This document shows positions 4,284 to 64,000 of a stretch of DNA of 64,000 nt, piece after piece (the stretch's first letter is position 1; the number at the start of each line of letters is the position of its first letter). The notes beneath the pieces were generated by a model. The model had not been told where the DNA came from. It saw only the letters and a list, made by a program, of their open reading frames with translations, and searched no databases. The position numbers and the translations under genes were made by a program. Source of the DNA: Euglena gracilis (Eukaryota); NCBI GenBank assembly GCA_039621445.1, contig CP154954.1, forward strand, positions 45,735,847 to 45,799,846, read 5' to 3'.

Positions 4284-4320
<37 letters not shown>

Positions 4321-4324
4321 AAAA

Positions 4325-4373
<49 letters not shown>

Positions 4374-20490: not shown

Positions 20491-20580
20491 ATTTAAGGCT
20501 GTGTTTATAAAGCAACATGGCTTTGGTCAAAGTCTGTGTTTCAGAACCTCGACGAAGGACGGCAGACTGACGACATATTT

Positions 20581-30786: not shown

Positions 30787-31215
30787 TGTGTACCAGGCAC
30801 GTCCCAGCTCTGTAGGATATCTGCAGAGTGGGTTCTGTGACGGTCGCACCACTGTGGAAACCCACAGCTGGTAAGATCGTGGCAGACCCTTCTGGGATCT
30901 GCCCCTGGACACGTCAGCACTTTTCTCTCCTTCCCCCACAGGTGGTATTATTTACTCTCACAATCTCCAAGTTTCACCTTTGGATTTGTCAGAGGGAAAA
31001 ACCCTCAGAACAATCAACTTTGATCTCAGAAGAAAACTTCTGAATCTTTGCTTTGTGCTTTGCCTCTTGGGGAATTGGGAAGAAAAGGGGAAAACCACTT
31101 TTCGTTACTCCAAAGACTTTTCCCTACCATAAGTAGGCTGCGCACCAAGGCGAAAGCGAAAGGCTTTTACAGAAAGTCCCAAAAAGGGAAAAAGGGAAAG
31201 CTTTGGACGTACACT
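30787..31215 (+). repeat. 5' LTR of element 2
   Basis: TGTGTACCAGG...GGACGTACACT followed by the PBS TGGTAGCAG. Confidence 0.95.
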
Positions 31216-31410: not shown

Positions 31411-31637
31411 CACAGACGTTCCACACAGAGAAACTCTGTGGTTGACTGGTGGTGAGGATCGTACTGAGCCGTGAAACACGGTGAAAGTACTGTTCCTGGC
31501 CCCTAGCCAACCTTTAAGCAAGGATACAGGTCTCAGAAGGCTCTGTTCGGTAATCGCCGATACAACCTTTCTGGTCCCTGTTTCTCTGCTTATTTGTGTG
31601 AATTTTTGGGTTTTTGCCTTTTTACCCATCTCAAAAG

Positions 31638-34600
31638 ATGCAGAGCACAAGCCCCAACCCCAAATTTGATTATGACTTGTTGATGAGTTCATTGAGCAAT
31701 TGTGATGAAGATTGCGGGGATTGGAACGGTTTGAATGAAACAAGTTCCAATTCCCGACCCCCCAAGCAAGAAGAAGGCAATTTGACTCATTTGTCATTGT
31801 CAAAAGGCGAAACGCCTTTATCATTGCATGGGGGTAATGAACCCTCTTCATCATCTTTGTCATTGATTGTCCGGGATGTAGGTGGCAAAATGCCTTCCTC
31901 CATCCCGATTCACCCATCATTGATGCGGCGAGGGGATGAACCCCTTGCACCCCCACACTTGGTTACTCATGTTACCCATGAACAAAGTGAGGGGTATTTG
32001 CCCTTTGCTCTGTTCACACCCAAAAGATCCCCGGTGGAAGCACCGGTGGGCCTTTTGGAGTGCAACTCGGTGGAAACACCGTGTTTTTTCCAACCCCCCC
32101 CTCAATTACCACCCCCCACACCATTTCACGCTTTGCCGGGATTACCCGCGGAAGCTGCGGTTTTCCCTGCATTGCCATGGAACCCAGATATGCGTCTGGT
32201 GGTGCCGGAAATCTCTGGTGCCGTTTCTATTGTGGAGGACTATGAGGAAGATTTGAGGGATAACCTCACCCCCGGTGATGTTTTCCGAATTCTCGGTCAA
32301 CTTCCAGCGGATCACCCGCTTAGCAAGCAAATTTTGCATGTCCACCAATGCGTTGCGGAATGCGCAACCATGCTCAACAAAGTTTTGCAGTTTGATGAGG
32401 ACAATCAAAGGGTTGTCAACACCAAACTGGAATGTTGCTGGAATTATTTGCAGGAAATCGGCAAATATTGCCAACACAATTTTGAAAATGCGGGGAAAGA
32501 CCTTCAGCATTTTCGAGAAAGTGTTGACAGTATTTTGCGCATCCAACTTCCACAAAATTTCCAACAAATCAGCGAAATGCTGCATGAAGCGGAAACGCGG
32601 AATGATTCCAAGTTTCTGCATGTGCAGGATGGTATGAGCCATCTTTTTGCCCAATTGGAATCCTGTTCAACCATGTTACTGCAATTGCAGCAGCAGTTAC
32701 AAGCGCAAAATGCCACCCCCAAAATGCCGGAAATCGGTAACTTTGTCGCGGTTGAGCATTTTGCCACACTTACCACTTCTTTTCAAGAAGCGCAACAACG
32801 GATTTTGCATCTTGGCTCGGAAATCGAGCACTTGAAGCAATTTCAAGCGAAAGTGCAAGAGAATTTTGTTCCCCGTTCGCAAATCCAGTTTTGGAGGAAC
32901 GAATTTTACACTTGGAGCAAAAATCCTGCCATTGTGCCGCAAATCAGGATGGATTAACCACCTTGAACGCGAAAATCGCAGATTGCGCACAACGGTTGGA
33001 TTTTACGCAACAACAAATGCAAACGGACATTGGCGGTATTAATGCCACCGTTGTCGGTTTGCAGGAGCATGTTTTCGCACTTTCCAAGCGAATTCCCGAC
33101 ATTAGTGGTATTCAAGCCGCTATTGGGGAATTGCAAACCCGTTGCACCTTGTTGTCTACCACAGTGACGGAAATCCGCTCACTACCCCCCATTTCGCGTG
33201 CTCGGATATCCGAGTCACCGGAATTTCGCTCATTTTATGACAAAGTGCTTGGTGACAACAAGGAAACCTTGCAAGCATTTTGTACAAGTTTGCTCCAAAT
33301 CGAGGAAAGCGTGAATCGGAATGCCCGATCCATGCAAGATGAGGTTTCTCGGTTGGATGGACGAATTTCTGCGTTGTTGGAAAAGCCAACCGCGGAAAAT
33401 TCGCGCACCACCGTGGAAACCCCCACAAAGTCACTCCACCAATTGCAAACCGTCTCAAATGCGGTAAAAGCGCTTGCGGGTCAACTCCGGAATGTGGAGG
33501 AGTCCCAAGGAAATCTTGCCCAAGAATTACAATTGGTTTCTGAAAAGATGCCACACTTGGAAGATTTTTCCCGTTACCGCAAACGCGTTAGGCATTTGGA
33601 GACTGAGGTTGACCGTATTTGCGGCCAACTCCAGTTGGTGGAACATTTGGAAGAAACGGTGCATGACTTGTCCGCGAGTCTGGATAAAATGTCCACTCCG
33701 GTACCGGTTGTGCCACCATCCACCGCGGTAAGCGCTGCGGTTGGTATTCCAAATGTCCCGGAATCGCGTTCTCAAATTACCATTTCTGGAGTAGGAATCC
33801 CTACATCCACTGCGAATTTGGTACAACCACCCGCGAAAACGCGAATTGTACCACCTTTGCATTTGCCAACACCACAAACACACTCTTCGCACGACATTTC
33901 CGATGAGGAAATTGGCCCCCCACTCGAAAATTCGAGTCTCCACCAAGAAATTCAACATTCCAACCTTGTACGAGGTATGTGCCAACACCCCACACCTGGT
34001 ATTGGTCATGTGTCGCATTCGCGATCATACCAACAACCGACGGGTTCTGGAATGCCAGACCACCCATCGGATTTTCGGCGGGAAACCCGCCCCACTGGGG
34101 GAATTTCACCACATTTTCCGCGTTTCCCGCAGGAAAATCCTGCCAACCTTACACTTGGTGCGGGAAATCCTGCACGGGTTACACATGGAGCGGAAAATCC
34201 GCGAAACGCGTTTGGTGTTAAGAATTACCCTGACCCAAACCCCTGGAATACCACCGAGGGTCAGCGGGTTACTCAGAGAGACTTCAAGGGCACCATCGCA
34301 ATCGCGAACAAGGTGAAACCCCAATGGGACGGGGATCCAACCACATGGAGACAATTTTTTCGGGATTGGGAGTACTACTGGGCACTAAAAGGACCCACCC
34401 AAGACCCGAATCCCGAGGTAGTCAAGATGGAATTCATCGATTGCCTACCGAGGGAGGAGCGAGAACGCGCACGCAATTTGGTGATACGTAATGGCGTATC
34501 ATTCGATGACCTGGTTGAGCAATACGCTTCAACCAATTCAAGTCTGGTCACCAGGATTACCCTGGAGAAGAAGTGGCGACAAAGCGCGCCATCGGATCGC

Positions 34601-35713
34601 AAATGGAAATCCATTGACCTTTGGTATGCCAAATGGTTAGCACTTGCTTCCGAAGTTGATGAACTTAGCGAGAAGCAAATGCGTGAACAATTCGATGCGG
34701 TTTTGTTGCATTTCACACCATCCCTCGTGAAGGATATCCATCGCGAGGAGTTGGCAGGGCATGAGATGACTCTTGCCCAACGTTGGAATTATGTGTCAAA
34801 GCAACTCAAGCTCACACAAGTTTTAGGACAAATACAGTCCGCTTTCCAAACGCATCCCACCGCGGGAATCCCTGCGGGTGCGGTTAATGCATTGCAAAAA
34901 TCACCCATGTCACCAAGATCACCCACCACGGGACCGAAAACGCGGAATCAGCGTTCTTCGGACCAGGGCACGGATAAACTGTGCTTTTTGTGCAACAAAT
35001 CTGGTCACATGTCTCGGGAATGCCCGAATCCCGATGCGCGAAAGCGTATTGGAAGCCCAAGGGGCTCGACCTCCTCACGGGGATCGGGTTCCTCGGCGTT
35101 TTCACGTCAATCGGCAGTTTCACGGTCTTCGGAGAACCGCTTTAGCGGTAGTAGGCCCAAGTCACCATCGCGTGATGGTCGGGAAACCCGTCCTTCTCGC
35201 GGTCGGTCACCTGGCCCCCCTGCCCGAAAACGGGATTTCAACCGCGATTCTTCACGATCTCGTTCGCGAAGTGGATCATCCTCTTCACGCGAGTCAACGG
35301 GGAAGTCCCGATACACCGGTCATGGTCGACGGGAAACCCGTTCACCACGACGGTTTGACGGAAAAACGGAATACCGTTCCCCCCGTTATGCGGAATCCCG
35401 CCACAAATCCCGTTGTTCACTTTGCGGTTCCAAAGATCACCACGCATCCAAATGTCCCAGATCTCGTTCCCCCCGGCCCGGCTACGGAAATCGCGGTAAG
35501 CGCCGCGATGACCGTGGTTACTCCTCCAACCGGCAAAAGGTCGGTTTCAAGATATCTTGTTTGGAGGAGGACACCCCGGCTTCGGGCAGGGAGGGGGATG
35601 AGACCTCGGACGGGGAATTTAATGAGGCCCGAATGGCGGTGCGCTCATTGAATTCCATCTATTCCACCAAAAAGTCCGTCGCCGGCTATGCGGCCGGTTC
35701 GGACTTGGAGTAG
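31638..35713 (+). CDS. gag: Gag of element 2 (~1350 aa), one frameshift in the T-run near 32890
   Basis: ORFs 31614-32957 and 32891-35713 join by homology to the Gag of element 1 (VQHLEERL versus IQF/LEERI); knuckles CFLCNKSGHMSRECP and CSLCGSKDHHASKCP. Confidence 0.88.
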
Positions 35714-35865
35714 GGGAGCCCGAGGTCCGAGGGCACGGACCTCTGGGCTGATGAACAGATGGAGGTAAGACCTGATCAACCTTACCCCCCTGCCCATCCG
35801 CCTTCACGGTCAGTACCCGGAATTATTTCGGGTCCCCTACCCCCCACTCCACATTTCCGCTCGGA

Positions 35866-38800
35866 ATGCTGAGCAAAGTGGGAAAGGGTTCATGGGAGAG
35901 CTGGCATGCAAACGTATTTCCGCCAGACCCTTCACTTTGCGTACCACCAATGGAATTACTCGTCCAAGCGGAAATCCGCATCCAAAATTTCTCCACTAAA
36001 GTTAAAATTCTCATTGACACTGGTTGTCGCATAGCACTGCTCTTTCGGTTGGGGTTGATACCGACCCCGCTCTTGGTAAGCGCCAAGAAACCGATCAAAA
36101 TTACAACCGCGGATAACACCCCCATGTGTGGTGGTGATTTGGGATGTGTGCTCGAGATACTCTTGCCCATCATTCCGAAGCATCACTCACAACCCCCACA
36201 ATTACAACATTTCACCAATATTTGGGGTTACGAGTCCGGAATTCACGGGTCTGACGTAATCTTGGGATACCCATTTTTACGCCAGTACCGATTGGTTGTG
36301 GATTGCCACTCCCACGGTTTGCGCACAGCACCCACCACTTCATTGACACCCAAACCACCATCACCGTTGTCATCCACTATGATGACCACCGCTTTGCCCA
36401 CACCGTTACCCACAATGGCAACACCGTTACCCACCACACCAACAACCGTTTTCCACACCCGGGGTACGGAGAAAGCCTCCCCCCTGCCCAATGACACACC
36501 AACATGCGTTCCACATGAGGCAGGGCAAGCGAGTAGCGGTACCCCCACCGTTCCACTGGGTTACAAGACGAAAGCCCAAAGGCCTGAAGTAATTACGGTG
36601 TCGAGTAGTCGCCCAGCTACACCACCACTCCGTTTCCCACCAGTTGTGCCGAATCCAGGCACACCTGTACAAGACTCACCGGCTAATGCCATCGACACCC
36701 ACTTTCACGCACACCCGTCACACCATCACACTTCCTTCCAATGTGTGCACTGCAGGAGAATTTCCACCCAATCGGATTTCGATTGTGGATGTTTAGTTCA
36801 AAATCCGACACTAATCGCAATTCCGAAAACGGAATCCACCACCCATGATACACTTGGTTGTAGCCCGCAATGCGCGGAGATACACCGAGTACTCCAACAA
36901 CGCGGATTAGCCTCGTTGTTCGGAACCGCGAAAAGCGCGATTCCTAATTACAATCGCGATCACCCTTGGTACGGATTTGATGCGGAATGGGGAAACCCCC
37001 AACCTGTCCAAACTCCCTTGGGATCAACCCTTGTGGTAGTGGAAGACAGCCCGCATGTTTGTGGATCCATTCATTGTGTTTCTACCCTTCAACCCGAAAA
37101 TCGGGTGCATGAATACGCGAAACGCGTATGGAATGCTTTCAATTTCGGTCAATATCGCATTTTGGAACGATGGTTTTCCAAAATCGCGACATTGGCAGAT
37201 TCTTTTGATTTGGCATTGGAAATCGATGCCTTCTCATCCAATGCACATGCCCGTTTGCCACGTCATTGGTCACAACACTCCAACGCATTTGATAAATTTT
37301 GGGGTGATACGGTGTTATGGATGCACCCTCCCCCAAAACTTATCGAATGTGCGGTTGAGAAAATTCTGCGGGATGAAGCCCGTGGAGTTATTCTCATACC
37401 CATCATTCCGGAAGCGGAATGGTTCACCCAACTATCGTATGTATGTTTTCATTGGTGGGATTTACCCACTAATGTACCGATTTTTGAGGATTTTTGTGGT
37501 AAAATATTACCACCCTTGCAAGAAATCATTTTTCGCGTATGTTTCTTCGATGCATTCGGAATATCCGAATTCGCGGTGCCGAGGAAGCTCGGTAGCCCCA
37601 GGGATACCCTGGCGGTTTCCGCAGTCATCGAGAGTGCAGGTCAGCATCCTAAATCAGCCGAATTCTGTTCGCGGATTACCCGCGAATTCCACGGTGTGCT
37701 GGAAAATCCAGTATACGCGTGCGACATCGACCCCGCGATACGCGGTCCGTTCGGTGTTTGTAAGATCGAGCTTAAGGATGGAGCAAAGCCAATGCACCGG
37801 AAATTTTTTCGTTGTTCGGGAGAACGCGAACAAGCTCTCAATGAAATGATTGAGAAGCTTATTCAGCGCAAGTGGATTGTACCCTCGAAAAGCGAGTGGA
37901 CATCCCAGGCATTTGTTGTTCCTAAACCCCCAGACCCCTCAGGTCAGAAGAAATGGAGGCTGGTGCTGGATTACCGGTACCTGAACTCCCAAACAAGGGA
38001 TGATCCCTTCCCGCTCCCCCTTGATCGAGGATTTGATCACCAAACAATCGGAAAACCGGTTGTGGTCAATTTTCGATCTGGAGGACGGTTTTCACCAAAT
38101 GCACTTACACCCTGACTCCCAACCATACACGGCATTCGTGACATCCAAGGGTGTGTACCAATGGACGGTACTCCCCATGGGTGTTAAGAATGGCCCAGCC
38201 ATGTTTCAGCGCATGATACAATGGGTTCTACGCGATTTACCGTTTGCCATTGTGTACATTGATGATGTGCTGGTGGGAACACCACCACCATCCGCACAAT
38301 CGAGCGAGGATATCCTCGTCACACACTTCCACCATGTTTGTGCGGTATTAACCGCTTTTCAAAAACATGTGCTTTTCGCGAAAGGCGCAAAAATGCATTT
38401 GTTTCGGATTCTCATAAAATTTTGCGGGCACATCCTCAGCAATGGACAGCGGAAAGCCGCTCCGAGTAAACTCGAAGCCATTAAGAAATGGACCCCTGAG
38501 GTAATCAAAACGATTACTCACCTCAAAGGATTTTTGGGATTAGCCCAATACTACGCGATTTATATGAAGGACTTCGCGAAAATCGCGGTGCCCCTCACCA
38601 AACAGCTCAAAAACCGGGCTGTTGACAACACCAAAGTCATTTGGGATGCCCAAATGCGCGAGGCCCTTGAGAAAATCAAGGTTTTGCTTTTGGAGAATGT
38701 TGTCCTCGAAATCGCGGACCCGTACAAACCATACGTGTTGGAAGTCGACAGCAGCGATTACGCTGTTGGCGGAGTTCTTAGCCAGCATAATGCGGCGAAT

Positions 38801-40813
38801 GAGCTCCGACCTGTGGCTTTCTTCAGCAGAAAGTTACAGGGCGACGATGGAAAAGGGCAAGTCAAATGGAGTATACGCGAGAAGGAAACCTACGCAATCG
38901 TGCTTATACTCCAGAAATTCCGAAGCTGGGTAGCCAGCAGCCTCGTCCAGATCCTCGTCAAGACCGACCATGAGAGTCTCCAACACTGGTACACCGAGGA
39001 TTTGAACAAGGCCATGTCATCGGTCGGAAGGCGATGCAGATGGCATGAGTTCTTGAGTCAATTCAACCTTGTGGTTATCTATACCCCTGGTCACACACAA
39101 AAAGTAGCGGATCCGCTCAGTCGGGCCCCTTGGTATTACCCTGGGAACCCGGATGAGGGAGACGCGACTTTTCATGGAAGTCAGGAAGCTGACGACTACG
39201 CACGTCGAAACGACGCTGCGGATAATCTTTTGGATTCTTTTCCCGTTTCACAACTATTCCTGGTCGCACCAGTGCGAGGAAGGCGCCGACGTGGAAGCAC
39301 GTCCGGGCCCCGGCGTATTACGCGCACGGAGTCCCCTTCTCCACTGTTCTTTCGCGAATGGGATTATAGTCGTGATCCGGTGTATGACACCATTGTCACC
39401 AGACTTCGTAATGGCGAAGTGCTGGACAATTACACTCTTTCACCTTTACGGTTGGTTTTTCGCAATGAATCGGGTTACAAATATTGTATCCCCCAGGACC
39501 TGGTTGATGATGTGATTTTGTGTTATCACAACCATGGTCACCCTGGGGCCCCCAAACTTCTTTCGTTGGTGGGCCGCAGGTACTGTACAACCCTGAACGA
39601 AAAAGAGCTTTACTCACGCTGTTTGCGAATAGCGCAACGGTGTCAAATTTGTCAAGCGGTAAAACCCCGCAGAGGTACCCCCCCTGGTACGATGGACTTT
39701 TTTCCCGTACCCCCTGACATTTTTACATCCCTCTGCATGGATTTTCTGGAATTAGAACCGTGCAAAGGAACAGACGACAAAATTTACGATTACGTTTTTG
39801 TTGTCGTCTGCAGGCTGAGTGGGTACATTGTAGCCATTCCATGCCAGAAGTCAGGGTTGACTGCCCAAAGTTTGGCAACTATATTTTTGGAGAAATGTAT
39901 TTGCTTGATGGGTTTACCGAATGAAATCGTGAGTGATCAAGACCATTTGATTTCTTCAAGGTTTTTCACCACTTTGTGCGGTTTACTCGGAATCGAGCAA
40001 CATTTTTCCATTATATACCGACCCAAAGGCAATGGTAGAGCCGAGGCAGCCGTGAAATCCGTCGTGAATATGCTTCGCCTTTCACTGGCTGACTCGCGCA
40101 GCAACTGGATATCAGTTCTACCATGGTCTTTGTTTTATATCAATACCCTACCAGGGTTGGTTTTACCTCACTCCCCCTATAAATTAGTTTTCGGACGGGA
40201 CCCTCCGGCCATAGGGGATGTCCCTTCGGAGAGACCCGCCCGAACGAGTGTCAGTTGCGAGACCTGGTTTGCGGAAGTAGAAAATCTACGTTCTGCAGTC
40301 CAGAAGCGCGTCACTGATATTCATGCAGCAAAACGGAAATCGTTTTTGCAGAATTTCAAGTCACCTGTTTACAGTCCCGGTGACCGCGTGTGGGTACGGA
40401 ATAGCCGTACTCGCATGCAGTCTTCCAAGCTGGACCCCCTCTGGCTCGGCCCCTGTGAAATCCTAGAAAGACTAGGTACCAGCGGGCGTTACAAGGTTGC
40501 ATTACCGAATGGTGTTGAGGACGTTCATATGGACGACTTCAAACCATACCTGTCGCCACCGGATGGGAAACCCATCCCGTGTTTGCACTTCAAACCCCGT
40601 TCCAGATTACCTGAGACGGACGACTTTGTAGTCGATAAAATTATCGATCACAAAATCGACAAAGGTATGCACCTTTGGAAGGTCCGCTGGAAAGGGTATG
40701 GGCCCGAGGAGGACACTTGGGAGCCAGCAACCAGTTTTGTTGGGTATGTCCAGCAAGATTGGAAGCTGTGGAACAAGAAACATAACATTGATGTTTCCAT
40801 GACAAGTTTTTGA
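35866..40813 (+). CDS. pol: Pol: aspartic protease, Dam-like MTase, RT, RNase H, integrase, chromodomain; one frameshift in the C-run near 38018
   Basis: ILIDTG; LDYRYLN..FPLP; LPMGVKNGP..YIDDVL; EVDSSDYAVGGVL..VAFFSRKL..TDHESL; HNHGH..CQIC; MDF..SDQD..AEA; WLGPCEI; VDKIIDH..WKVRWKGYGPEEDTWEP. Confidence 0.93.
37150..37560 (+). other. Dam-like (DIRS/phage-type) N6-adenine methyltransferase domain inside Pol
   Basis: IDAFSS-NAHARLPRHWS-NAFDKFW-LWMHPPPKLI-AVEKI-GVILIP-EWF follows the recalled DIRS MT pattern DLFA..N..LP.Y.S..DAF...W..(N/F)PP..I...L.KI...IL.P....WF. Confidence 0.72.
40625..40785 (+). other. Chromodomain at the integrase C-terminus
   Basis: FVVDKIIDHK..WKVRWKGYGPEEDTWEPATSF; aromatic-cage residues F, W and Y are present. 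Confidence 0.9.
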
Positions 40814-40834
40814 GAACGCATGGGAAACCCATGT

Positions 40835-40884
40835 TGTTTTCTCTTCTTTTTATCATTGATTCTTATCATTCTTTCTTTCCGCAG
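40835..40884 (+). promoter_or_regulatory. Candidate splice or trans-splice acceptor for ORF3
   Basis: About 50-nt pyrimidine-rich tract ending CTTTCTTTCCGCAG, with no ATG between it and the ORF3 start at 40976. Confidence 0.5.
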
Positions 40885-40975: not shown

Positions 40976-43900
40976 ATGCTGCCCGGCGGAAGGGAGCCAG
41001 GCGGAGGACCGCCTTACCACCCCACCACTCACCCTCAACCTGACCAGTATGCGTACCGATACGGTACGCAGCCACCTGCACGGACTGCGGCTCAGGGAAA
41101 CCCTGAAGCCAGCAGCAGTAGCAGGATGACCCAGATGCCCGCGGAAGCGCGGCCATCTCAGCCATCAGGCTCTCGTCGCCTCCCACCGTATGCGGGTGTG
41201 ATGATCCACCGCACGGCGGAGACGATGAACCGGGTTATGCGTATGAGCGCAAACCCGGCACCAGACCAACTCACACAGGCATTGTGGGATGACCACTGCC
41301 GTAAAGTTTTGACCATCGCGAATACCCCTCCAGCCCTGTGGTGTATGTGCGCCCAGGCGACGATGACCGGTCTGGTGTATTACACCGACCCGGACGCGTC
41401 GGGTTTCGCGGCAGACATTACCATGCGTGACCTGGGCGTGGAAGTCCCGCCACAGGTCGCCAGGCAGGTACCACCTGTTGGCACTTACACTGCACATTTT
41501 CGTGCTCACTCCCCCGGATTACCCGAGGAAGAGACGGTGGAAGCACCTGTCCGGAGTGAACACCCACGTGTAAAAGAAAGCATTTTTCGATCCCCTGAGC
41601 GCGTGCCCCGGCGGGATTATCCTGCGCAGGAGCCTGTGTCTCAGTATACCGTCTCTGGGGATTACCCCCAGCAGGCGCCAATGCCACGGGATCAGTACGT
41701 ATATCCACCTCAACCCCACCCAACCATACCTGACCCTATCCCACGACGTCCTGCGGAGGGAAATCCTCCCCCGACGTCTGACTCTGCCCGAAGCGCTCGT
41801 CCGCGGGAAGCCGCGACAGCGCCTCGTGCGGCACCAGTTCCCCCGGCACGGGATGAACCCGTTAACCCGTGGACTGGTCGGCCGTTCGAGACTGAGGAGG
41901 ACCGTCAACAGTATGAATATGCTGTGACGATCCAACGACAAATCGCACGTCGCCCCCCTGTTTCCGCTGGCCAGGGATACCCTGCCCGGGCGGAAATGAC
42001 ACGGGAAGAGCGCCAGCAGTATGATGCTGCTGTGTCGGCTCTCACAGGAGTGCCAGCTCCATCACGGTCAAGTCAACCAGCGCAACAGCGGGACGTGGCT
42101 GTGGCGGAAGCGCCACCAACACGACCCACAAGCTCTGCCGCCGGCAAACGTGACCGCGGCCCGGAAAATCTGACGCCGCAGCCACAACGCCGCTCGCCGA
42201 GGTCGGAAAATCCGCCCGCGGCGATGCGCGTCGACGCTGAGGAGGAAGCTCCGCCAGCGCCCGACGTGACGGCAGAACGGGCACGTCGGGAAACCCGACC
42301 ATCCCCAGTCGCACCGGTTTACTCGAATCGTGGTGATGCTGAGCAGGAATTTGCTCGAACACCAAGCACGGAATCCGTGACTTATCCTGTGTATACAGAA
42401 GAAGACCCAGAATACTGGGAATATTGGGACCCATATCGGGCGACGATAGAATGGCTGTCCAACACGAAGGGCAAGGGTAAAGGAAAAGGCAAGGGTAAGG
42501 GTAAAGGTAAAGGCCAGGAGAAAGGTGGGAAAGCCCCATCTGGGAAAGGCGGAAAACCCGCTGGACCACCTCCAGGCAAAGGCGGAAAATCTGCCGGACC
42601 CCCAGCAGGAAAAGGCGGAAAAGCCGCCGAACCTTCGAAAACGAAGGATTACGACGCTGACCAGCTGTTCGATTACCTGGATGAAATCTGGCCGAAAATC
42701 GACCAGGATCTCGAAAAGTACACGCGTGCTGGCAACGTGATCCACCGACCACCGGAAGCGGTGCTCGCAGTGGTGCAGGATCGTATGCACGATCACTGCA
42801 AACGATTCATCTACAGTACCGAACTTCATCCGTTTGAGGGATACCCTCATTCGGATGAAATGGTCCTGGACCAGATGTCTGGTTTCTGGGAACTCTGGTT
42901 CTGGTTGGGATATCCCTGCCAGAACTTTGGCATTTTCACCGACCGAAACGGTCTGACATACATCGATTGTTTGAACACATGTGAAGACGATGAAACATTC
43001 GTAGCACAGTTGAAGGAAATCTTCAACCACATGTATTCCGTCAGCGCACTGGGAATCCAGTGGAAATATTACCCCCTGCCGGAGAAACTCCAGGCGCAGG
43101 CTGCGGTAATGTTCACAAACAACCTCCAAGTATTCTTGGACAGCATGTATGGCATGCTGTTCAAGGTACTGGACGTGGACCTCGCCTACCCTCAACGATA
43201 CAAACTGGAATGCCGGTTTTGCAAGGAAGTCCACATTGTTGACTTCTGGGGTTTTGGGGAGCGCGGAAAACCGCCTCCGACTGCCGAGAATGCCGGCAGC
43301 CCACCGACCAGGAGATTCCTCCTGCACCAGTGCCGGAAACCCCAGATCGGAACGCAAGACCGGAAGGTGCTGAAACAGCACCGGCAGAAAATATTTCTGC
43401 TCCAACAATACTGGCACAGGGCGTGGATTACCTACGTCCTGGAAGTATATATATTTCCTGGAACAGATGACCACCGATGTGGATATCCACAGGAAGTGGA
43501 TACCTCGGGGATACACCGAGGTAGATGCCAGACCGTATGATCCAGACCGACGCAGGATAAACCTGCGGCCGGACTGGACGGGGGCAGAAATCGGCCTCCG
43601 GGAACACCTGCAGAGCCAGTTCGGGGAAATCCTGGACTGGCAGGAGTTCGAAGTGTTCTTCGCTCCCCGCGAGCTAACCCAACCTCGCTACGCAGTACCA
43701 CTGCCAGCTTTCCTGGAAGAAACGGGAGAGTACGGTATGGGTGAGACTCGTCGATCGCAGTGGGAAGACCTCTGCCTGATCAACGAGGATGAGCCTCAAC
43801 CTCCACCCGGAAGCTGGGTGCGAGCGTCGTGGCCACCTCCATACCCCAACTCTGACAGGAGTGAAAGTATTAGCTTTTTCCGCCTGTCAAATGCCCAAGG

Positions 43901-46418
43901 GTGCTACAGAAGCAGGGAAGACCCGCGTTCTGCAGCCCAACTACACACAGAGGAGTCCCCTCTGGAAGCGGAGGAGACAGGAGAAGCGGTCCCAATGGCC
44001 GAGGATGAACCTCTGCCTGCGGAACCCCCGGCACGGGAAACCCGTAGCCCGTCGGTCGTGATGCTGGACACTGTGGCGGAAACCGCCCAGCGCCCAGGAT
44101 CACCGAGAGGTGAACTGACGCCTGTCCCACTGTCACCATCCTCGCTGGGTACGCCTGGCGGACCGACCCCTCCGCGGGAAAACCCGCCGGAGACGGTAAC
44201 CCCTACGCCTGAGGTATTACGCCTCAAGCTTCCTGTCCCCGGGGAAATCCCGACGACAGAGGAGCCAGTGGAGGAGCCCACTTCAGGGGAAGGACCTGAA
44301 CGGCGCCCCTCACTGGGCGGACGTGTACTCGGCGGTTTGCGATCACTGATCGCAGTTGTCACACCACGTGGCACTGCGGCTAGTTCTTCCACTGCTGTGG
44401 CGGAAACGGCCCAGCCAGCGGACGAAACAACTGAAGCTGCAGCCATGGAGGAGGATGAACTTCCCCCAATAGCCGCGCCACCGTCGGTGTCGGAAACGAC
44501 ACGGACGGAGGGCGAACCAACGGCAATGTCAGTGGTGACAACGCTACCCGTGCCAGTGCAGGATGAACCTGCATCAGCACCGGTAGCGACATCAGAGGCA
44601 CGGGATGAGCCCGTAGCTCCACACACATCGGCCACTGCACCGAAGCGTGCGGACACACGGACACCGGCACCTGAAAAACAGGCTGCACGGACATCCATGC
44701 CCCCACCACAAACTCAGCCAACGCGGAGTGCAGCGGCGACGCCCACACCCACACCGTCCCCCAAGGCTGCTCCTGGGAAACCCACGAGCGCAGCGAAAGA
44801 ACGCGTAGGGCGACCCTCAGCTCGGGAAACCCCTGCTGAAGGTCAACGACGCTCGGTGTCGGGGAAAAGACCCCCGGCCCAGCCGTCACCACGCACCTGG
44901 TCAAGCAAGCGTGACGCCGAACGGCGACCCTCGGATGCTCCGGAAAGCGGAAGTCCGAAGGCCCCGGCCAAATCAAAACCCGGTGCCGCGCCTTGCAAAC
45001 CCTCACCTAAGACAGGTGATCAGCCCCCACCGAAAGGCGGTGGTGGTGCTGGAGGCCAGGGTGCATCTTCTTCTCGAGGATCAGCCTCGGGAGGAGGATT
45101 CACACAGGTCACATCATCCGGCTATGGGAAAACCTCACCGCCGGAACCACCTACGAAGGGGCAGGGAAAATCCCGCGCCTCTACAATTACGACACCTTCG
45201 GAAGGCGAAGTTGTCATCGACTGGAATGCGATGACTCAGGATGATCCTGAGACTCATGACCTGAAAAACAGGTACATGATGATCGAACACAAGCTGCGAA
45301 CAGACCAATGTCTTAATCGGTGGATTGAACCACTGTTCTGTCAAGGACGGAAATGGTCCTTTGACCAGAATGTCACCTGGAATTATTACAATTCCAGATC
45401 ACCACGTGTTTTGGCCCAATACTTTGGCGAGGAATTCCTCGTCGACAGCACATCGGAAAACCGATTTGTGTGGCTTTGCACTGTTTGCCACAGGATGTAC
45501 AACAGTGCTCCTGACTTGGGATTACCCCTCGTCCATGTGTGCAACCCTGTGGAGCGGAAATCGTTCCACAAGGATATGTACATACCCAACTGTGCCGCCT
45601 TGGTATGCGCCAAGTGCGTGGACAGTTGGACCCACAAGCACAATTTTAGCTACACGGACCGAGATGGTACGAATGTACCAGTACTCTGCGTCAACTGCCT
45701 GCGAGGTACCTTCTGGCACACTGCGGAAGGCGCAGTTCGCACAATCGTGCCGAGTGCCGAGAAGCCACTGGAGGAATACTCCACCTTGAACAAAAAGTTC
45801 AAGGACTTCTTCAAGTATGCCAACCTCAAGCTGGACGACTACCGCCACACGGGAATGGCCCGTGGGTGGCAGATCGACAGTGGGGCGATACGCCTCGCTG
45901 CTGAGGAGGCAGGGGTAAGATTACCTTACCTCTGGGAGACAGCAGACAGGGAAAAGATACTTTTCCGCCTGTTCACAACCCAGGACCGAAACGGTCGCTG
46001 GTGCCTACCACAATGGCCGCCCGAAAAACACGGGATGACCTGGAAGGACTGGCTAGGGGCCGTATTGCGACCCCATACCGTCCGGGCGGAATGCGCCTAT
46101 CACGTTCCCATTGACTTCCACCCGGGGAATGCCCCGCAGGTGTCAGCCAACCACCCTCGGAGAAACTACTTCATCTGGCCAGCGACTTTGCCCAGGAAAT
46201 TCTGGGAGAAGCTGCAGTGGTTTCTCGCGGAAAGAGCGAGTGCCACCAAGCAGACAGTACCCGAAGGATGGGTTCGGGACTGGATCGCACCTGATTTCGA
46301 CTATGACTCGCCAGAAACCTGGCTTGTCGACAGGCCACAGCCACCACAATTCCAGATGGTCCTTGTGGAAGATCCCTTGGACTCCCGCCATGACTATTGG
46401 CGGCTGGAGCGGATGTAA
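40976..46418 (+). CDS. ORF3 of element 2, unknown function, ~1810 aa if the 854-aa and 983-aa ORFs are joined near 43455
   Basis: Removing one T from ATATTTCCTGGAACAGATG gives YIFLEQMTTDV and fuses the ORFs; the C-terminus is homologous to 63323-64000. Confidence 0.8.
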
Positions 46419-48300
46419 TGCCGAAACGGCATTACCAAGCCCATGTAAGGTAAGCGCCTTCATGGAGCTCATACACTATATATATATATACACTGGAAGC
46501 GGAAATCGCTAAACAGCCCTGGGATGAACCTGGGTCTGTGTCCCTCAGCGCTATGGATGGAAGCATCCAAGAGCCCCCCCCCCCCAACCCATTATACCAG
46601 TGACCATGCGGACGGAAACCGTCTGCGGGAGGTAATCGCCTCTTATTGCGTCGTGAAGGAGCTACTGCTGTGAAGACCTTGGCAGCCGGGAAACCTGGCA
46701 AGCCGCTAAGTGACGCACAGCACACAGCGCGCACGCCGTAATAATAGGCCAACTTGTCACTTTTCGGCCCTAAGGCCCTTAAGGCTGCCAGACAGCAAAA
46801 ATTCTGTTCTGGCCTAAGCCAGCCCCCCTCTCCTCCCTACTTTCCCCCCACCCCCGCAAAGCTGTCGCCGGCAGTCGGTTTTGTAAGTAGGCTTTTGTTT
46901 CCTAGTGCGGATATGACCGCCTAGGAGCCTTATCCGGGTATGACCAGGATAAGAGCCTGCCCCCCCCCTTCCACACCTCTCCCTTGGGTTTTCAGCGAAT
47001 CGCTTGACCAACCCCGCGTGCCTTTGGCACACCCAAACTGGGTGGATGGGACACTTTGTCAGGAAACCTGCCAAGCCCCGTTTCCCACAGTGGGCTTCTT
47101 CACACCCCACCTAAGCCGAAACGGCTAATAGGTAACCGCGAAACGCGGCTAACCTTTTGCGCGTTTTTGGGCTTTGGGTGGATGCCACTGTGCGGAAAGG
47201 AGAGACACCCTCCACAAATGACTTACATTTTCCCCTTTCTTTTCATCCCAAAGCCATCTGGTTTTAATTTATTTGGCGATTTCTTCTTGGTTGTGTGATT
47301 GCTTTTTCAAGTTCCGTGTGGGAGGTATCATGCATCCAATCCCGTCACAAGATATGCATTGTTTTCCACAACTTTCGATTAAAAGACGTTGGAGTAAAAG
47401 AGAATCACATACGCAGGGAAACATTCAAAGGAAAAGTTTCATCGTTTTGAAATCACCGCTTCGATTACACAATAGACATATTTATGCTACATTTGCATTC
47501 ACAAGCATTTGGGTGGTATTTTGATTTTTGTCCAACTCATTTGAAAAACCGGAATCAACTACCACTTTTTTAAAGACAAAATCAAATTGACTCGGTGAAA
47601 TCATTGAATTTGAAGAAATCATCATTTGCACTTTGAACAAAGCTTGTCGTGATCACTTTAAAGTTGAAGGTATGATCCTGCTATTGGTCCTTTTGTGTTC
47701 TTTCACGGTTTTTGCAAACCTCCGAGACCTTTTGTAAGCCAAGCAACTAAGTTTAGGAATGCACGACGAGGATATGATCATCATTTCGTAACTGATTTGA
47801 GCCTCCGGGAAAGGGACGTTCTCGTTCTGAAATAGAACATTTCAAGATACCCGAAACGTTTTACACCCAAAGTTTTGCCCATAACGTAAACTACCCAAAT
47901 GTGAATTCAGGGCTACCAAATTCTGCTATATAAAATTCACGCCTCTGAGGAGGCACAAATTAAAGTGAACACTTTTTACTTGAATGTATCAATGTTTATG
48001 CAACTTATTTGTTCAGTAAGGGACTTGAATGAATATCTCGAGCCCGCCGACATTCACAAACCCAAGTCATCACTGACAATCACCATTTAGGCTTCAAGTT
48101 ACTTTGCATGAACCTCTTTACACCTGACAGGACACCATATAAAAAAAACCATGGTTCAAGAAAGCGAAGGAAAAGCAGCTTGAGTGCGAAGGAGGAAGGG
48201 AAAAGCAGGCGCCCCGTGCCGTCCCGCCCTTGCGCCAGAGGCGCAAGGGCGGGACATGCACGGGACCTACATGTCTATCGTCATACCATCACTGGGTGAG

Positions 48301-48729
48301 AGTGTACGTCCAAAGCTTTCCCTTTTTCCCTTTTTGGGACTTTCTGTAAAAGCCTTTCGCTTTCGCCTTGGTGCGCAGCCTACTTATGGTAGGGAAAAGT
48401 CTTTGGAGTAACGAAAAGTGGTTTTCCCCTTTTCTTCCCAATTCCCCAAGAGGCAAAGCACAAAGCAAAGATTCAGAAGTTTTCTTCTGAGATCAAAGTT
48501 GATTGTTCTGAGGGTTTTTCCCTCTGACAAATCCAAAGGTGAAACTTGGAGATTGTGAGAGTAAAGAATACCACCTGTGGGGGAAGGAGAGAAAAGTGCT
48601 GACGTGTCCAGGGGCAGATCCCAGAAGGGTCTGCCACGATCTTACCAGCTGTGGGTTTCCACAGTGGTGCGACCGTCACAGAACCCACTCTGCAGATATC
48701 CTACAGAGCTGGGACGTGCCTGGTACACA
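48301..48729 (-). repeat. 3' LTR of element 2, inverted
   Basis: Reverse complement of the 5' LTR; PPT GGGAGGGGGA on the minus strand at 48730-48739. Confidence 0.93.
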
Positions 48730-49439
48730 TCCCCCTCCCAGGGCTACGCCCGATTTCCTTCATGGACCAGGGTTTCCCAGTCCAGTCAGGATATCTGACG
48801 CTGCCCCAGGTGGGGTTCACTTCTCCATGGAGGTCAGAATTAATTTGTAACATAGGAGACATTTGGTTTATTTTTTTTGGTTATGTTTCAAAATTTTAGG
48901 GCATGATGCACAAATCAAATTCCTGGTGAACATTCTTCTTTTTGGAAAAGTATTGCAAATTTTATTTTTAAAGAGATGATACTTACGCGTAGCTCTGCTT
49001 CTGTTTGATGGGTTTGTCCAAAAAAGGTGATCGCAACATTTCTCTTTGTTTGATGAAAATTACCTGACTCGGAAAAAGTATTCTTTCCTTTGATTCTCCC
49101 TCCAAAAGTTAGCGTTTGCAATTCTCCTCATTTTTTTTTTAACCAATTCGGAAAAAAGTTGTCCAAAACAGGGTTTTAGGTGACACAAATGGTGGAATTA
49201 TCTCCTTCCTTCCTCTCTAAACCGCAATTCATCCCATTTCGCAAAATTATTCCGCGCACGCGCAGTTCTGTAATGGCCGTTTCCCAAACAGCGGCATTTA
49301 AGGGCTGTATTTTCCATATGGTTGAAAATGCTTCTAGCGGACGTGGCAAAACCTACATCACTTCAGAACGACTTCTTGCAACAACTTCAAATCTCCCAGG
49401 CACCAGCCGGAATCTATAGGCACGGCTTGTGCGTCTCGT

Positions 49440-49625: not shown

Positions 49626-50234
49626 TTGGAAAACACCTTGTGCAAGTCGAGGAGCACTAAGGGGAGGCTTGCAGGCTTGAGATCCTGAGGATAAGGCGTG
49701 TAACTTGGCAAAATTGGTGGATCCTGAAGTAGAGGCACGGAGAAGGCCAAAGGAAGACAAGCAAAAACAAGTTATTTGTGGCATAGGAAATCACGCCAAA
49801 CAATGACTCTTTTAAATACGGCCATTTTAGAAACTTTCGCAACGTGGAACGTGGTCTTGACACCCTGCACAATGAAGATAGGACGAGAGGCCCCGCCCCT
49901 GCACCACAAAAGGTAGGCCGTGAAAGGGTGATTGGTGAGAGGGGGGAACGGGGCACCATCCTGTCTCGGCAAAAGCTCCTTTTTGAATTAAGTTTTCTTT
50001 TTGTATTTCTTCTGAATTAAGTTTTCTTTTTTTACTTCTTCTGAATATGTTTGCCGTTATTTGCATCAGGCCTGCCGTTCCGAAAGTTAACGTCAAGAGG
50101 TGGGTGTAAATGAAAACTTCAAAGAAGAAAGTGACGATCTGGGTGAGCGATGCTTCATTTTAATGTGACCTTGAACCAGGCACCCATTTCGATTCTCAAA
50201 ATGTTCGTAGTCTTGTCCTCCGTTCCTACTCTAG

Positions 50235-52210
50235 TTATAGGTGCCGCCCCGGCGGCGCGAATGTCAGTAGGATTTGGGGGAGGGGCCCCGAATCCACAGA
50301 CGAGCAGTTAACGCTACTGGGAAAACTTTGAATAAAAAAAATGGGGGTATCTCAAATCGATCAGTTTCCGGACGGGAATGTCCCCCTGCTGTCCGGAGGC
50401 TCAAATCGGCTCCGTACGGAAGATCGGCCGCCCGTCAGATATGTGGTGCGCATTCCTAAACTGCACGTGGTGGTATAAGAATTTGGTTCTAACTCGCTTT
50501 GTAGCGGGAGATAGGGCTCGCATTCGGCAGACGGGCGGCCGCGATTGACGGCGATGCAGACTGGAGGACTGGAAAGAGAGAAAAAAAAAAGGACTGGAAT
50601 GAACACAAGAAGGTTTGTCAACCATCTATTTATTTTCCATCCAGATCACAGCGCAATCTAAAGAATTCATTTGTAACTATCAATTATTTTTTTTGAAACG
50701 AAATGGTGATTATGTTTTTTTTGATGCTTTGCACTTCACAGTTGAGGTATGATCCCTGTCACTTGTTCTTTGCGGAGTTGATCTTTTCAAGTTGCTGCTG
50801 AAAATAGGCTGTGTTGATCTTTTCCGCAGTTGTGCTGGTGAAAACTTTTGAGAAAATCTGTCACTCACACGTCACATGATTTCGCAGGATAATGTCAAAA
50901 TGTCTGTGTTAAAACGACTTTTCCTACTTCTTTTGCTTTCATTTTCTTCAGTTCCTTCACCTTTATCTCAATTCCCTGATGAAGGAATTCGACACACAAC
51001 ATCAACTCTGGGCTGTGTTGGAAGCTGGGGGGTGAGCAGGGTGTATCCTGAGGAATCATGATGCATGAAATGTGTGAGATGTTGCAGGAATGATCGTTGT
51101 CACAGATACCCAGATGAAACGTTCAGGATTTTTTGTTTGGAATATTGTTCTTGAAAAGGTCCTTATGAAACAGCTACATGCCACAGACTTAATTATTATG
51201 CCTCCTACTTGCATATTTTGCCAAACACCAGGTGAAGACGGTCTGCATCTGTAAAAACACAAGCACTGCAACTGAAAACAAACAGGCACTATGTTACAAA
51301 AATACAAAAAAATGCAAATTTGAAATTGAAATGAAATGCTCAGCCAGTTATGGACCACTGGTCTTTTCGGTACTTGTCTGTTATCGCACGACATACCCCC
51401 CCCCCCTTTTGGTTATCGCACGACACCTTATTTTTAGTCTTATTAGGTTATTTTAAGGAGTAGGGTTAGGTGCGCTCAGGCAATGTTGCGCTACATGGCC
51501 ATGTTGCGCTACATGGCCATGTAGCGCAACATGGCCATGTAGCGCAACATTGCCTGAGCGCACCTAACCCTACTCCTTCAATAACCCCATATAAACCAAA
51601 AAAAGGGCGTCGTGCGATAACCAAAAGGGGGGGGGGGTATGTCGTGCGATAACAGACAAGTACTGTCTTTTCTTTGATCTGTTTCTCCAAACATTGTTGT
51701 TTTTTTGTTTCTTTTATCGTTGGATGGAAACTCTTTTTTTCCGTTCACAGATTTTCACAACATTTTTTGAATGGCAGCCTTCCCCCCCAGTCTTTGGGGC
51801 ATCCCCTGAAATATTTTTTTTTAAGGCAGCCCCCCAGGTTTTGGGCACAGTCCGTACTCCTCCTCAGTTTTTGGGCCACGCAGCCCCTTTCTTTTTACCC
51901 CCCCCCCACGACCGCGATCCGTGCTTTTTTTGGGCAGCCCAGGTGATAAATTAGGGCCACGGTCCGTACTTCGGGCATCCCCCCCCCCGAAACATCTGGT
52001 GCGTACGAGAAAACGGCAGCCCAGTTGAAAAAAAAATGGGCCGCAATCTGTGTTTTGTGAGCCCCCCCCCCCGTAAATTTAGACTACGATCTGTACTTTT
52101 TCATGGCAGCCCAGGTTGACAGTTTTTTTTCAAAAAAAAAACATCTTTTATAATGCCACTTTTTTAAAATAAAATAAAAAGTCATCAAGAGCCTCGAGAA
52201 ATTTTTTTTA
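50235..52210. mobile_element. Large repeat, copy B (truncated)
   Basis: Same start as copy A; similarity ends after GAGCCTCGAGAAATTTTTTT. Confidence 0.8.
51373..51660. mobile_element. Foldback MITE with TA duplication, present only in copy B
   Basis: TA|CTTGTCTGTTATCGCACGACATACCCC...GGGGTATGTCGTGCGATAACAGACAAG|TA; central palindrome of 18-bp units; absent from copies A and C. Confidence 0.85.
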
Positions 52211-53251: not shown

Positions 53252-53260
53252 CTGTTCTTG

Positions 53261-62189: not shown

Positions 62190-64000
62190 AGTGTACGTCT
62201 GATTCCCAATTCCCCTTTCCCAATTCCCAAAAGCCTTCGCTTTCGCCTTGGCGCACCTACTTGGGAACTGAAAATCAGAGTAACAGTGAAAACCCTTTTC
62301 CCACTTCCCAAGAAGCAAAGCACGGAGCAATGCAGGGAGGACGGACTGGAAATCCAAGTCCGGTCCAAGGAAAAGGTATAAGAAGAATAAGAATACCACC
62401 TGTGGAGAGAAGGGGCACCCATTAGGAAATCCTAATAGGATCTGCTTCCATCCTAACTTCCTCAACGGAAGGGGACAGAAGCATACGCCTGGTACACATC
62501 CCCCTCCCAGGGCTATGCCCGATTTCCCCTTTGGACCAGGCATTCTGGCCACAGGGATTTCGGACACAGACCTGGTCTGTGGGAGGTGCACCCTGGCGCA
62601 TCCACAGGGGCCCTTTCCGTCGCACAGGGGTCCACTCAAAGGGGGGGGGCGGAAAGGAGGGGACCCAAAACCCAAAAACCGGCAAATGGGTTTCACCTAT
62701 TCTGCGGTGGCTTATGGGTATATAGTATATTATAGCCCATTGAGGAAAATGGGGCTGGCAGGTTTCCTTGCCAAGCAAACCCATCCACCCAGTTTGGGTG
62801 TGCCCAAGGCACTTGGGGTTGGTCCATGGGCATTCCAGGAAAACCCATGGGGAGGGTGTGGAAGGAGGGGGCCTCTGACCAGTCAAACCTGGGCAGGGCG
62901 CATGGCCAGTCAAACCTGACCACGCAAAAGGAAATCCTACTCTACAAAACCAACTGCCGGCGACAGCATTTGCCCCGGGGGGGAAAGTAGAGAGGAGTGG
63001 GGGGTTGGCTTAGGCCAGAAAAGTTGTGCTGTCTGGCAGCCTTAAGGCCTCAAACGGCCGAAAAGAAAAGAAAGGGAAAGGAAAAGGGGCCGTCGGCCCT
63101 GTGCGCTGCGTGTCGCACGCCCGCGAGAGGGGAGAGGGGAGAGGGGTGTGCATGCATGCGCACGGAATCCTGCACATGGCAGCATCCCGGTGGGAACTTA
63201 CTAGCGGCGAATACCGCAAAGGGTCTTCGAAGGGGCTGTTCGGGCGAATACCCAAACAGGGTGTCAGGCGAATACCTGACGAGGGTGCTGAAAGACGCCG
63301 CATTGGCGCTGACAGAGACACCTCACCTGCCTTTATTGGCTGGACGTTCGCGGACCTCACGCCAGTAGTCGTGTTGGGGGTCCCCTAATGGGTCCTCAAC
63401 CAACTCCAGTTGGCGTGGGGAACGCGGCGGAGCTGATTCACTCCGAATGGTGTTGAGCTCCGGATCGTTGACATCAAAGGAAGGGGTCTCCCAGTCCTTG
63501 ATCCAATTATCCGGCAGCTTCTCCCTGGTACGTTCAGCATGATGCTGAAGATACCGTTGGAGTTGCTCCCAGAAAATTCTGGGCAGCATCACCGGCCAGA
63601 TGATGTAATTCATCCGGGGGTGATTCGCAGGCACCTGCGGGGGCATCCCCGGGGTCTGCTTGAAGTTGATGTCATACATCCACCTCGCTGTCCGAACTCT
63701 TGCGGTATGGGGCCGTAATACAGCCGCCAACCAACCTCTGAAGTCCACCAAATCGTGTTCTTCAGGAGGCCACAGTGGCAAGGCGTATCCGCCATGCTGA
63801 CGCTTGGAGAACAGGGGGTAAACCTGTGTCTCCCAGTCGCCATCAGTCCAGAGGTAAGGCATTCTTACCTTGGCGTGTTCCTCGACGGCGAGGCGCATTG
63901 CCCCAGCGTCGATCTGGAACTCACGGGCCATTCCCGTGTGGCGGTAGCTTTCTACCTTTTTGAAGTCGGAGTGCTTCAGGCGTCCTTCCACCTGCTTGTA
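62190..64000 (-). mobile_element. 3' end of LTR element 3 (LTR 62190-62498, PPT 62499-62508, 3' UTR, ORF3 C-terminus)
   Basis: Same termini and PPT as elements 1 and 2; shared 3' UTR blocks; empty site near 29245 in copy A. Confidence 0.9.
63323..64000 (-). CDS. C-terminal part of the ORF3 homologue of element 3 (runs off the window)
   Basis: YRHTGMAR..QID.GA.RLA, PYLW, LP.WPPE.H, WL.AVLRPHT, PQV.ANHPR.NY.IWP..LPR.FWE.LQ and LVEDPL..HDYWR are shared with element 2. Confidence 0.85.
   Translation of the reverse strand, partial: YKQVEGRLKHSDFKKVESYRHTGMAREFQIDAGAMRLAVEEHAKVRMPYLWTDGDWETQVYPLFSKRQHGGYALPLWPPEEHDLVDFRGWLAAVLRPHTARVRTARWMYDINFKQTPGMPPQVPANHPRMNYIIWPVMLPRIFWEQLQRYLQHHAERTREKLPDNWIKDWETPSFDVNDPELNTIRSESAPPRSPRQLELVEDPLGDPQHDYWREVRERPANKGR

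Follow-up and report, generated by a model that had tools for sequence, protein, structure and literature searches.

The 64,000-nt stretch of the Euglena gracilis genome analysed here (assembly GCA_039621445.1, contig CP154954.1, positions 45,735,847 to 45,799,846 of the forward strand; the window in what follows, with positions counted from its first letter) contains sequences of three long terminal repeat (LTR) retrotransposons, which we call elements 1, 2 and 3. We examined the third gene of element 2, ORF3, which occupies the position of an envelope (env) gene. An initial annotation, made from the letters alone, had described ~5.4 kb of sense coding sequence in this position, and two long open reading frames (ORFs), 40976-43540 and 43467-46418, are indeed found directly after pol. 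Our results indicate that ORF3 is quite probably a genuine element-encoded accessory gene that is maintained by selection and is not env. The parts of element 2 are the following.

30787..31215, + strand: 5' LTR, 429 bp, with CTCAC directly upstream and 99.8% identity to 48729-48301
just 3' of the 5' LTR, + strand: primer-binding site (PBS) beginning TGGTAGCAG, read from the sequence
31602..35713, + strand: gag, with a coiled-coil N-terminal part and a CCHC zinc knuckle; frame split near 32756-32957 in element 2
35776..40813, + strand: pol, with protease region, weak Dam-like segment, reverse transcriptase (RT), RNase H, integrase and chromodomain (Pfam, PHROG and three-frame reading)
40811-40813, + strand: stop codon of pol, downstream of which ORF3 starts
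40834..40884, + strand: pyrimidine-rich tract of 49 nt ending in AG, candidate 3' splice or trans-splice acceptor, read from the sequence
40976-43540, + strand: first ORF of ORF3, 854 amino acids (aa), frame 2 (from the ORF list), directly after pol
43467-46418, + strand: second ORF of ORF3, 983 aa, frame 3, with its stop at 46416-46418
40976..43445, + strand: first part of ORF3 (frame 2), with a Pro/Ala/Glu-rich disordered region, the Lys-Gly tract and block 1 (from composition and variant positions)
42470-42634, + strand: Lys-Gly tract, net +15 over 60 aa (charge count)
42638-43231 and on, + strand: block 1, aromatic- and Cys-rich, 197 aa with 31 aromatics and 6 Cys
43446..43453, + strand: (TA)4 run, the frame-change site in this copy, with two more bases in other copies
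43446..46418, + strand: second part of ORF3 (frame 3), with the rest of block 1, an acidic linker, a basic Ser/Pro/Lys linker and the C-terminal module
46712..47179, + strand: conserved 3' untranslated region (UTR), common to all three elements in the window
48301..48771, - strand: polypurine tract junction and 3' LTR, in inverted orientation

The carrier of ORF3 is a Ty3/gypsy chromovirus-type LTR retrotransposon. Within 37985-40813 of its pol, Pfam places RT (RVT_1, E 1e-19), RNase H (RT_RNaseH, 5e-23), integrase (rve, 7e-10) and chromodomain (Chromo, 5e-10) in this order, which is the RT-RNase H-integrase-C-terminal chromodomain order of the chromoviruses, and pol further has zinc-binding and core domains of integrase and an SH3-like domain. 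The pair of 429-bp LTRs with TG..CA-type ends, the PBS TGGTAGCAG, the 5-bp duplication CTCAC and a purine tract preceding the 3' LTR are all present. The CTCAC duplication matches only once the segment at about 47180-48771 is reverse-complemented, and this inverted 3' LTR segment reflects either an inversion of ~1.5 kb after insertion or an assembly error. Between the protease region and RT lies a weak Dam-type N6-adenine methyltransferase segment (37192-37431, + strand), which matches PF05869 with E 9.2e-4 and 19.4 bits, below the Pfam cut-off of 28.1, and, over residues 473-552, PHROG_111 'DNA methyltransferase' with E 1.3e-4; a PDB search by sequence returned no match for it, and the Pfam scan of element 2 found no DNMT. 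Despite the 99.8% LTR identity, frame changes are present in gag (32756-32957) and RT (about 38000-38115) as well as in ORF3, and those in gag and RT are either genuine or assembly indels. The coiled coil of gag (33014-33181, + strand) matches Pfam NPV_P10 at 36.7 bits (cut-off 29.8), with a weaker match in the gag of element 1, and this is probably a coiled-coil likeness only.

In the window, the sense coding stretch of 5.4 kb that lies after pol and ahead of the 3' UTR (40976-46418) is broken into two frames. The initial annotation had flagged 43455 as the place to check for a single ORF; this copy changes frame close to it, in the (TA)4 run at 43446-43453, whereas other copies are continuous. 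P0021, a protein of 319 aa from an environmental contig of 1,013 nt, spans both frames as a single uninterrupted protein, with 94% identity to frame 2 up to 43456 and 75% identity to frame 3 from 43446. In DNA run X1, we identified 8 contigs with 'TA' inserted behind 43445 (49,296 of 194,052 summed depth) and 3 contigs with 'AC' inserted behind 43448 (17,268 summed depth), and one contig of run X16 has 'TT' inserted behind 43451. Two bases added at the TA run let frame 2 run on in frame 3. That frame 2 is the coding frame up to the TA run is shown by the variants at 43255, 43303 and 43327, each of which is a third-position change and synonymous in this frame. Intact copies have a single ORF3 of about 1,814 codons, and the copy in the window is defective: its TA run is two bases short, and its element has the further frame changes in gag and RT.

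A different course of the frame was considered from P0013 and P0020, which match frames 2, then 1, then 3 when compared to 43109-43766, with ~150-180 nt of the window missing; a related database protein is 176 aa long. The intron (or two frameshifts) that this pattern would require was rejected because P0021 runs from frame 2 to frame 3 and because the three variants are synonymous in frame 2, and P0013 probably derives from a degenerate copy. Antisense to block 1, a stop-free frame of 539 codons (42068-43687, - strand) has no support as coding sequence, and the third-position variants favour the sense frame.

From its N- to its C-terminus, the ORF3 product consists of a Pro-rich region that is Pro/Gly-rich at the N-terminus, the Lys-Gly tract, block 1, an acidic Pro/Ala/Glu linker (245 aa, net -25, with 0 Trp/Phe/Tyr and 0 Cys), a basic Ser/Pro/Lys linker (185 aa, net +18, with four S/T-P-K-type motifs), and block 2 (403 aa, 54 aromatics, 12 Cys). 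The alternation of Pro/Ala/Glu linkers with two aromatic- and Cys-rich blocks that had been described at the outset is borne out by these counts, with 0 aromatics in the acidic linker vs. 31 and 54 in the blocks, and, again as described, neither a signal peptide nor a membrane helix is present: over 19 residues, the Kyte-Doolittle mean of the product reaches at most 1.16. The N-terminal signal peptide and membrane anchor by which env is recognised were thus not found, and the two halves of ORF3 matched 0 Pfam families at E <= 0.01, including any envelope or fusion family. Comparison of block 1 to block 2 revealed no similarity (best E 1.3), and an internal duplication of the blocks was rejected on this result. 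A PDB sequence search with block 1 yielded nothing usable, and its Atlas leads, at 0.85, are bacterial hypothetical proteins, with DUF6076 in 31% of one cluster, and by the scale of that tool count as no more than leads. Judged by composition and hydropathy, the ORF3 product is an intracellular non-membrane protein, of which about 60% is predicted charge-patterned disordered linker joining two folded modules.

The second of these modules, block 2, has the following conserved parts.

45213..46415, + strand: C-terminal module (block 2) of about 400 aa, conserved, 26-41% identity to 11 database proteins
45477..45698, + strand: Cys/His cluster, C-x2-C-H-x14-H-x-C-x16-C-x4-C-x2-C-x23-C-x2-C, with ten invariant positions
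46122..46220, + strand: most conserved stretch, PG..PQ..ANHPR.N..IWP..LPR..W..LQ, with nearly invariant columns in alignment A2

The ten Cys/His residues are invariant in every homologue that covers them (5/5 to 7/7 per column), and the module is, on its sequence pattern, a new family with a predicted zinc-binding Cys/His cluster and a putative helical domain. Searches of 13 module sequences against Pfam found nothing consistent at E <= 1 and no RING, ZZ or PHD model; PHROGs gave no match to ORF3, searches of the PDB by sequence (block 2) and by profile A1 gave nothing usable, and Foldseek of the module against the PDB and the BFVD viral structures gave 0 matches at E <= 0.001. The zinc region folded alone had a mean pLDDT of 45 and was unusable. 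The earlier suggestion that ORF3 is neither env nor a known captured gene agrees with this absence of Pfam, PDB, PHROG and fold matches.

Cross-brace fingers of the RING, ZZ and PHD types resemble the module in having four Cys/His pairs in series. In the RING consensus (C3HC4 or C3H2C3, given here from general knowledge), 2-3 residues separate the second and third ligand pairs, whereas in the module this gap is about 21 residues, and two extra invariant ligands are present. By this spacing, the cluster appears cross-brace-like and is not classed as RING. Leads towards RING and ZZ domains recurred with four tools but were weak, both by sequence (RNF141, E 0.61; Atlas scores of 0.76-0.80) and by structure with VIA-align (Slx1 RING, Z 2.5 over 64 residues with an rmsd of 3.7; ZZ domains, Z 2.0-2.4), and the viral leads, baculovirus PE38/IE2 and an ascovirus RING protein, were weak as well, at E > 1.

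To identify relatives, we searched 1.84 billion representatives with HMMER using the second half of ORF3, and found 18 proteins at E <= 1e-3. Seven of the 18 are linker fragments from run assemblies (55-68% identity), one, P0013, also from a run assembly, spans the end of block 1, and ten cover the C-terminal module with 26-41% identity, comprising the E. gracilis transcript P0001, environmental proteins (ENA, JGI) and the 39-aa P0014. The best relative, P0001, is a Euglena gracilis transcript by its source label and the only such match among named sources. The short linker that directly precedes the module is present in it too, and it is therefore probably another ORF3 copy and not a host gene. 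ORF3 sequence is highly repeated: 19,805 contigs of DNA run X1 match it, across all 30 bins. Further searches added no relatives: a word-indexed homologue search with the C-terminal region scored 0 of 1,596 candidates, profile A1 recovered P0016 and P0001 and nothing else from 8,000 candidates, with profile A2 none of 141 pattern matches from metagenome contigs and none of 70 from viral contigs proved to be a relative, and a query with P0011 identified none among 101 pattern matches.

The window itself contains a second, diverged ORF3, in element 3.

63359..64000, - strand: last 215 codons of ORF3 in element 3, truncated by the end of the window, followed on the same strand by 3' UTR, polypurine tract and LTR
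62190-62498, - strand: LTR of element 3, 309 bp (vs. 429 bp in element 2)

The element 3 protein (63997-63359) shows 47% identity to the ORF3 of element 2 over 215 aligned residues (E 4e-49), and the order of ORF3 end, conserved 3' UTR, polypurine tract and LTR is the same in element 3. Comparison of the two over 206 codons gave a nonsynonymous rate (dN) of 0.41, a synonymous rate (dS) of 1.78 and a dN/dS of 0.23, a ratio that is imprecise because a dS of 1.78 is near saturation. Over the same codons, pN/pS was 0.46 (bootstrap 0.37-0.57), and the identities at codon positions 1, 2 and 3 were 66%, 69% and 46%. We further compared the window copy to the other copies in X1, using the best 40 of 320 differences, 39 of which are in ORF3. 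Codon position 3 accounts for 30 of these 39 (binomial p = 3e-8 vs. one third), and 28 of the 39 leave the amino acid unchanged. Among the same variants, the share of position 3 was 10/16 in the disordered N-terminal region (40987-42228), 4/5 in 42997-43327 and 12/13 in block 2. Heavy CG methylation could raise the number of transitions but would not favour third over first positions. The low dN/dS against element 3 and the third-position excess among the genomic variants both indicate, as read from these sequence comparisons, that ORF3 is subject to purifying selection. Taken together, these results sustain the claims of the initial annotation that the end of ORF3 is conserved in element 3, at 47% over 215 residues next to an LTR of 309 vs. 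429 bp, and that ORF3 is selected (dN/dS of 0.23 over 206 codons, with a third-position excess of p = 3e-8). The claim that ORF3 is family-wide holds for two of the three elements in the window, with high copy number and diverged relatives on its side, but not for element 1, which is gag-only and lacks ORF3 along with RT and integrase.

Conservation extends beyond the stop codon of ORF3. The stretch 46712-47179 is 70% identical to 3342-2903 of element 1, and 46760-47096 is 77% identical to 63065-62734 of element 3. The coding DNA next to it is 68% identical between elements 2 and 3, and the higher identity of this non-coding 3' stretch (77%) may point to a cis-acting signal. Element 1 (2332-13034, - strand) has 410-bp LTRs that are 100% identical and its own duplication, CCCCT; its gag, the same as that of element 2, is an intact single ORF of 1,386 aa, and no RT, integrase or ORF3 was found in it. 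It also contains an AT-rich stretch (4001-6000, GC 38%) and has the look of a non-autonomous relative that inserted recently. Beside it, a frame of 267 aa (13825-14625, - strand) matches DUF659 weakly, with an E of 0.0075 that does not reach the cut-off, and is a possible transposase remnant. Element 2 is bracketed by an 8.6-kb direct duplication (20578-29188 and 53258-62061, 92-95% identical) with internal repeats of ~100 nt, and a third copy, limited to the first 2 kb, lies at 50230-52208.

With respect to expression, contigs of runs X15, X16 and X18, which are only presumed to be RNA, were not counted as evidence, and a small share fell to the metatranscriptome run X17. Spliced-leader trans-splicing is general in euglenids. 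The first ATG after the pyrimidine tract and its AG is the start of ORF3 at 40976, and this arrangement suggests that ORF3 would be translated from a sub-genomic mRNA produced by cis-splicing or spliced-leader trans-splicing at the candidate acceptor (40834-40884). The gag-only element 1 with its identical LTRs implies that mobilisation in trans is open to defective members of the family; if ORF3 is needed, it would likewise act in trans. As for function, the basic Lys-Gly and Ser/Pro/Lys tracts and the predicted zinc module point to an adaptor that would bind nucleic acid or chromatin, and, given the Dam-like segment and the chromodomain of element 2, a chromatin-related role is the most economical guess. 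We tentatively propose that ORF3 could be a zinc-finger adaptor whose basic tracts tether it to nucleic acid or chromatin and which might promote expression, RNA handling or integration of the element; this is the mechanism that we consider most likely, though with limited confidence, and the anti-silencing or host-manipulation role suggested by the initial annotation is likewise a guess.

Several observations weigh against ORF3 being a genuine accessory gene with a folded, functional product, in addition to the near-saturated dS and the restricted set of variants given above. Most of the summed depth in X1 (about 63-75% of a total of roughly 140,000-194,000) is without an insertion at the TA run, and the broken short-TA allele may be the commoner one, if depth reflects copies, although summed contig depth is a poor proxy for copy number. 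The full protein is not encodable from the window copy, in which gag and RT are out of frame too, and outside ORF3 assembly indel errors may be involved. The AlphaFold2 model of the module is of middling confidence (mean pLDDT 61, pTM 0.58), and VIA-align of the module over 48,161 chains found no fold match above a best Z of 3.4.

The main functional alternative to a chromatin role may be genomic RNA export. CERV, encoded by the Ty3/gypsy element Cer1 of C. elegans, is a novel non-env nuclear protein that is encoded downstream of pol, is produced from a spliced mRNA and acts in trans for the RNA of the element (PMC10309623). By analogy, ORF3 would be a nuclear RNA-export or expression factor, made from a spliced mRNA, that exports the unspliced genomic RNA. 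ORF3 shares with CERV the position 3' of pol and the non-env, intracellular character of the protein, and it has a candidate acceptor upstream and basic tracts that could bind RNA. Its size of ~1,814 aa and its predicted zinc module have no counterpart in CERV as stated in that account (PMC10309623), and we regard an ORF3 of this kind as unlikely.

A bolder version of the chromatin role would make ORF3 a RING/ZZ-like chromatin effector, possibly a ubiquitin-ligase-type adaptor, that forms with the Dam-like methyltransferase and the chromodomain a three-part kit for escaping or rewriting silencing where CG methylation is the default, and that is expressed by trans-splicing of the full-length element RNA at 40883-40884. 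We consider this combination unlikely; if it were true, trans-splicing at 40883-40884 would represent a euglenozoan route to a sub-genomic mRNA.

It is also quite improbable that the C-terminal module or the whole of ORF3 is a transduced host gene with no role in the life cycle of the element. Homologues of the module with 26-37% identity are on short environmental contigs of unknown context, which counts against an element gene, P0016 (431 aa) resembles a stand-alone module, and Euglena LTR elements are reported to exchange or capture domains (bioRxiv 10.64898/2026.05.21.726589). However, ORF3 is carried by two lineages of elements with different LTRs and only 47% identity between the proteins, it is highly repeated and under apparent purifying selection along its whole length, whereas transduced ORFs are typically found in one or few copies (PMC7264820), and the only match with a named source, the E. 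gracilis transcript, looks like an ORF3 copy in sharing the linker.

The excess of X1 depth without the two extra bases at 43445, together with the overlap of the two ORFs by 74 nt (43467-43540), would also fit a pair of products, namely ORF3a by itself and a fusion of ORF3a with ORF3b that arises when ribosomes shift by +1 or slip at the TA run, with the short allele being functional. This is very improbable given that the frames are already joined at the DNA level for P0021 and in 11 contigs of X1, that the gag and RT frame changes of element 2 fit plain decay or assembly error, and that summed contig depth measures copies poorly. Nor did a known shift-prone heptamer or downstream structure come to light, although no search aimed at these was made. 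A degenerate or unconventional envelope gene, as the location of ORF3 after pol and before the 3' LTR, together with the candidate splice acceptor ahead of it, could suggest, is barely conceivable for a mostly disordered, Pro/Ala/Glu-rich product without signal peptide or membrane segment (maximum hydropathy 1.16), without a Pfam match at E <= 0.01 and without a BFVD match at E <= 0.001.

As an element-encoded accessory gene, ORF3 has counterparts elsewhere. Additional ORFs (aORFs) of plant LTR retrotransposons lie between pol and the 3' LTR (Vicient & Casacuberta 2020, PMC7264820); as that review describes them, they are sense ORFs present in many family copies, with functions that are mostly unknown, and are dispensable for the basic gag-pol cycle. 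ORF3 is likewise a non-gag/pol ORF within an element that is conserved among copies (47% in element 3, relatives, copy number), and differs in its euglenid host, its length of about 1,814 codons and its new Cys/His module, with no sequence relation to the described families. Bdelloid rotifer LTR retrotransposons, as reported in PMC5408684, have captured additional ORFs, and resemble element 2 in having a third ORF besides gag and pol and differ in their host. Closest in host are the chromovirus-like DAM-LTR and EpiLTR retrotransposons of Euglena, which collect epigenetic modules (bioRxiv 10.64898/2026.05.21.726589): as characterised in that preprint, DAM-LTR elements are Ty3-like, with a chromodomain and a Dam-like domain adjoining RT. 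The overall architecture of element 2 fits this class, although its Dam-like match is below the Pfam cut-off and no DNMT was found. The main text of the preprint (bioRxiv 10.64898/2026.05.21.726589) does not mention an ORF3, an additional or accessory ORF, a zinc finger, RING or a part of unknown function, and our literature search on additional ORFs of Euglena LTR retrotransposons found no paper describing ORF3. A third ORF located after pol and ahead of the 3' LTR is thus a known kind of gene, and ORF3 is new in host, size and protein family.

According to PMC11252322, between a fifth and a third of the E. gracilis genome consists of LTR retrotransposons. For these Euglena elements, ORF3 would represent a further module acquisition, in the form of a very large selected gene with a module that family and structure libraries do not recognise. 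Non-env third genes have been described for a small number of LTR elements, few of them with a known role, and ORF3 contributes an example from a protist. The conserved, predicted zinc module and the candidate acceptor provide a handle on how such elements persist in a heavily methylated genome.

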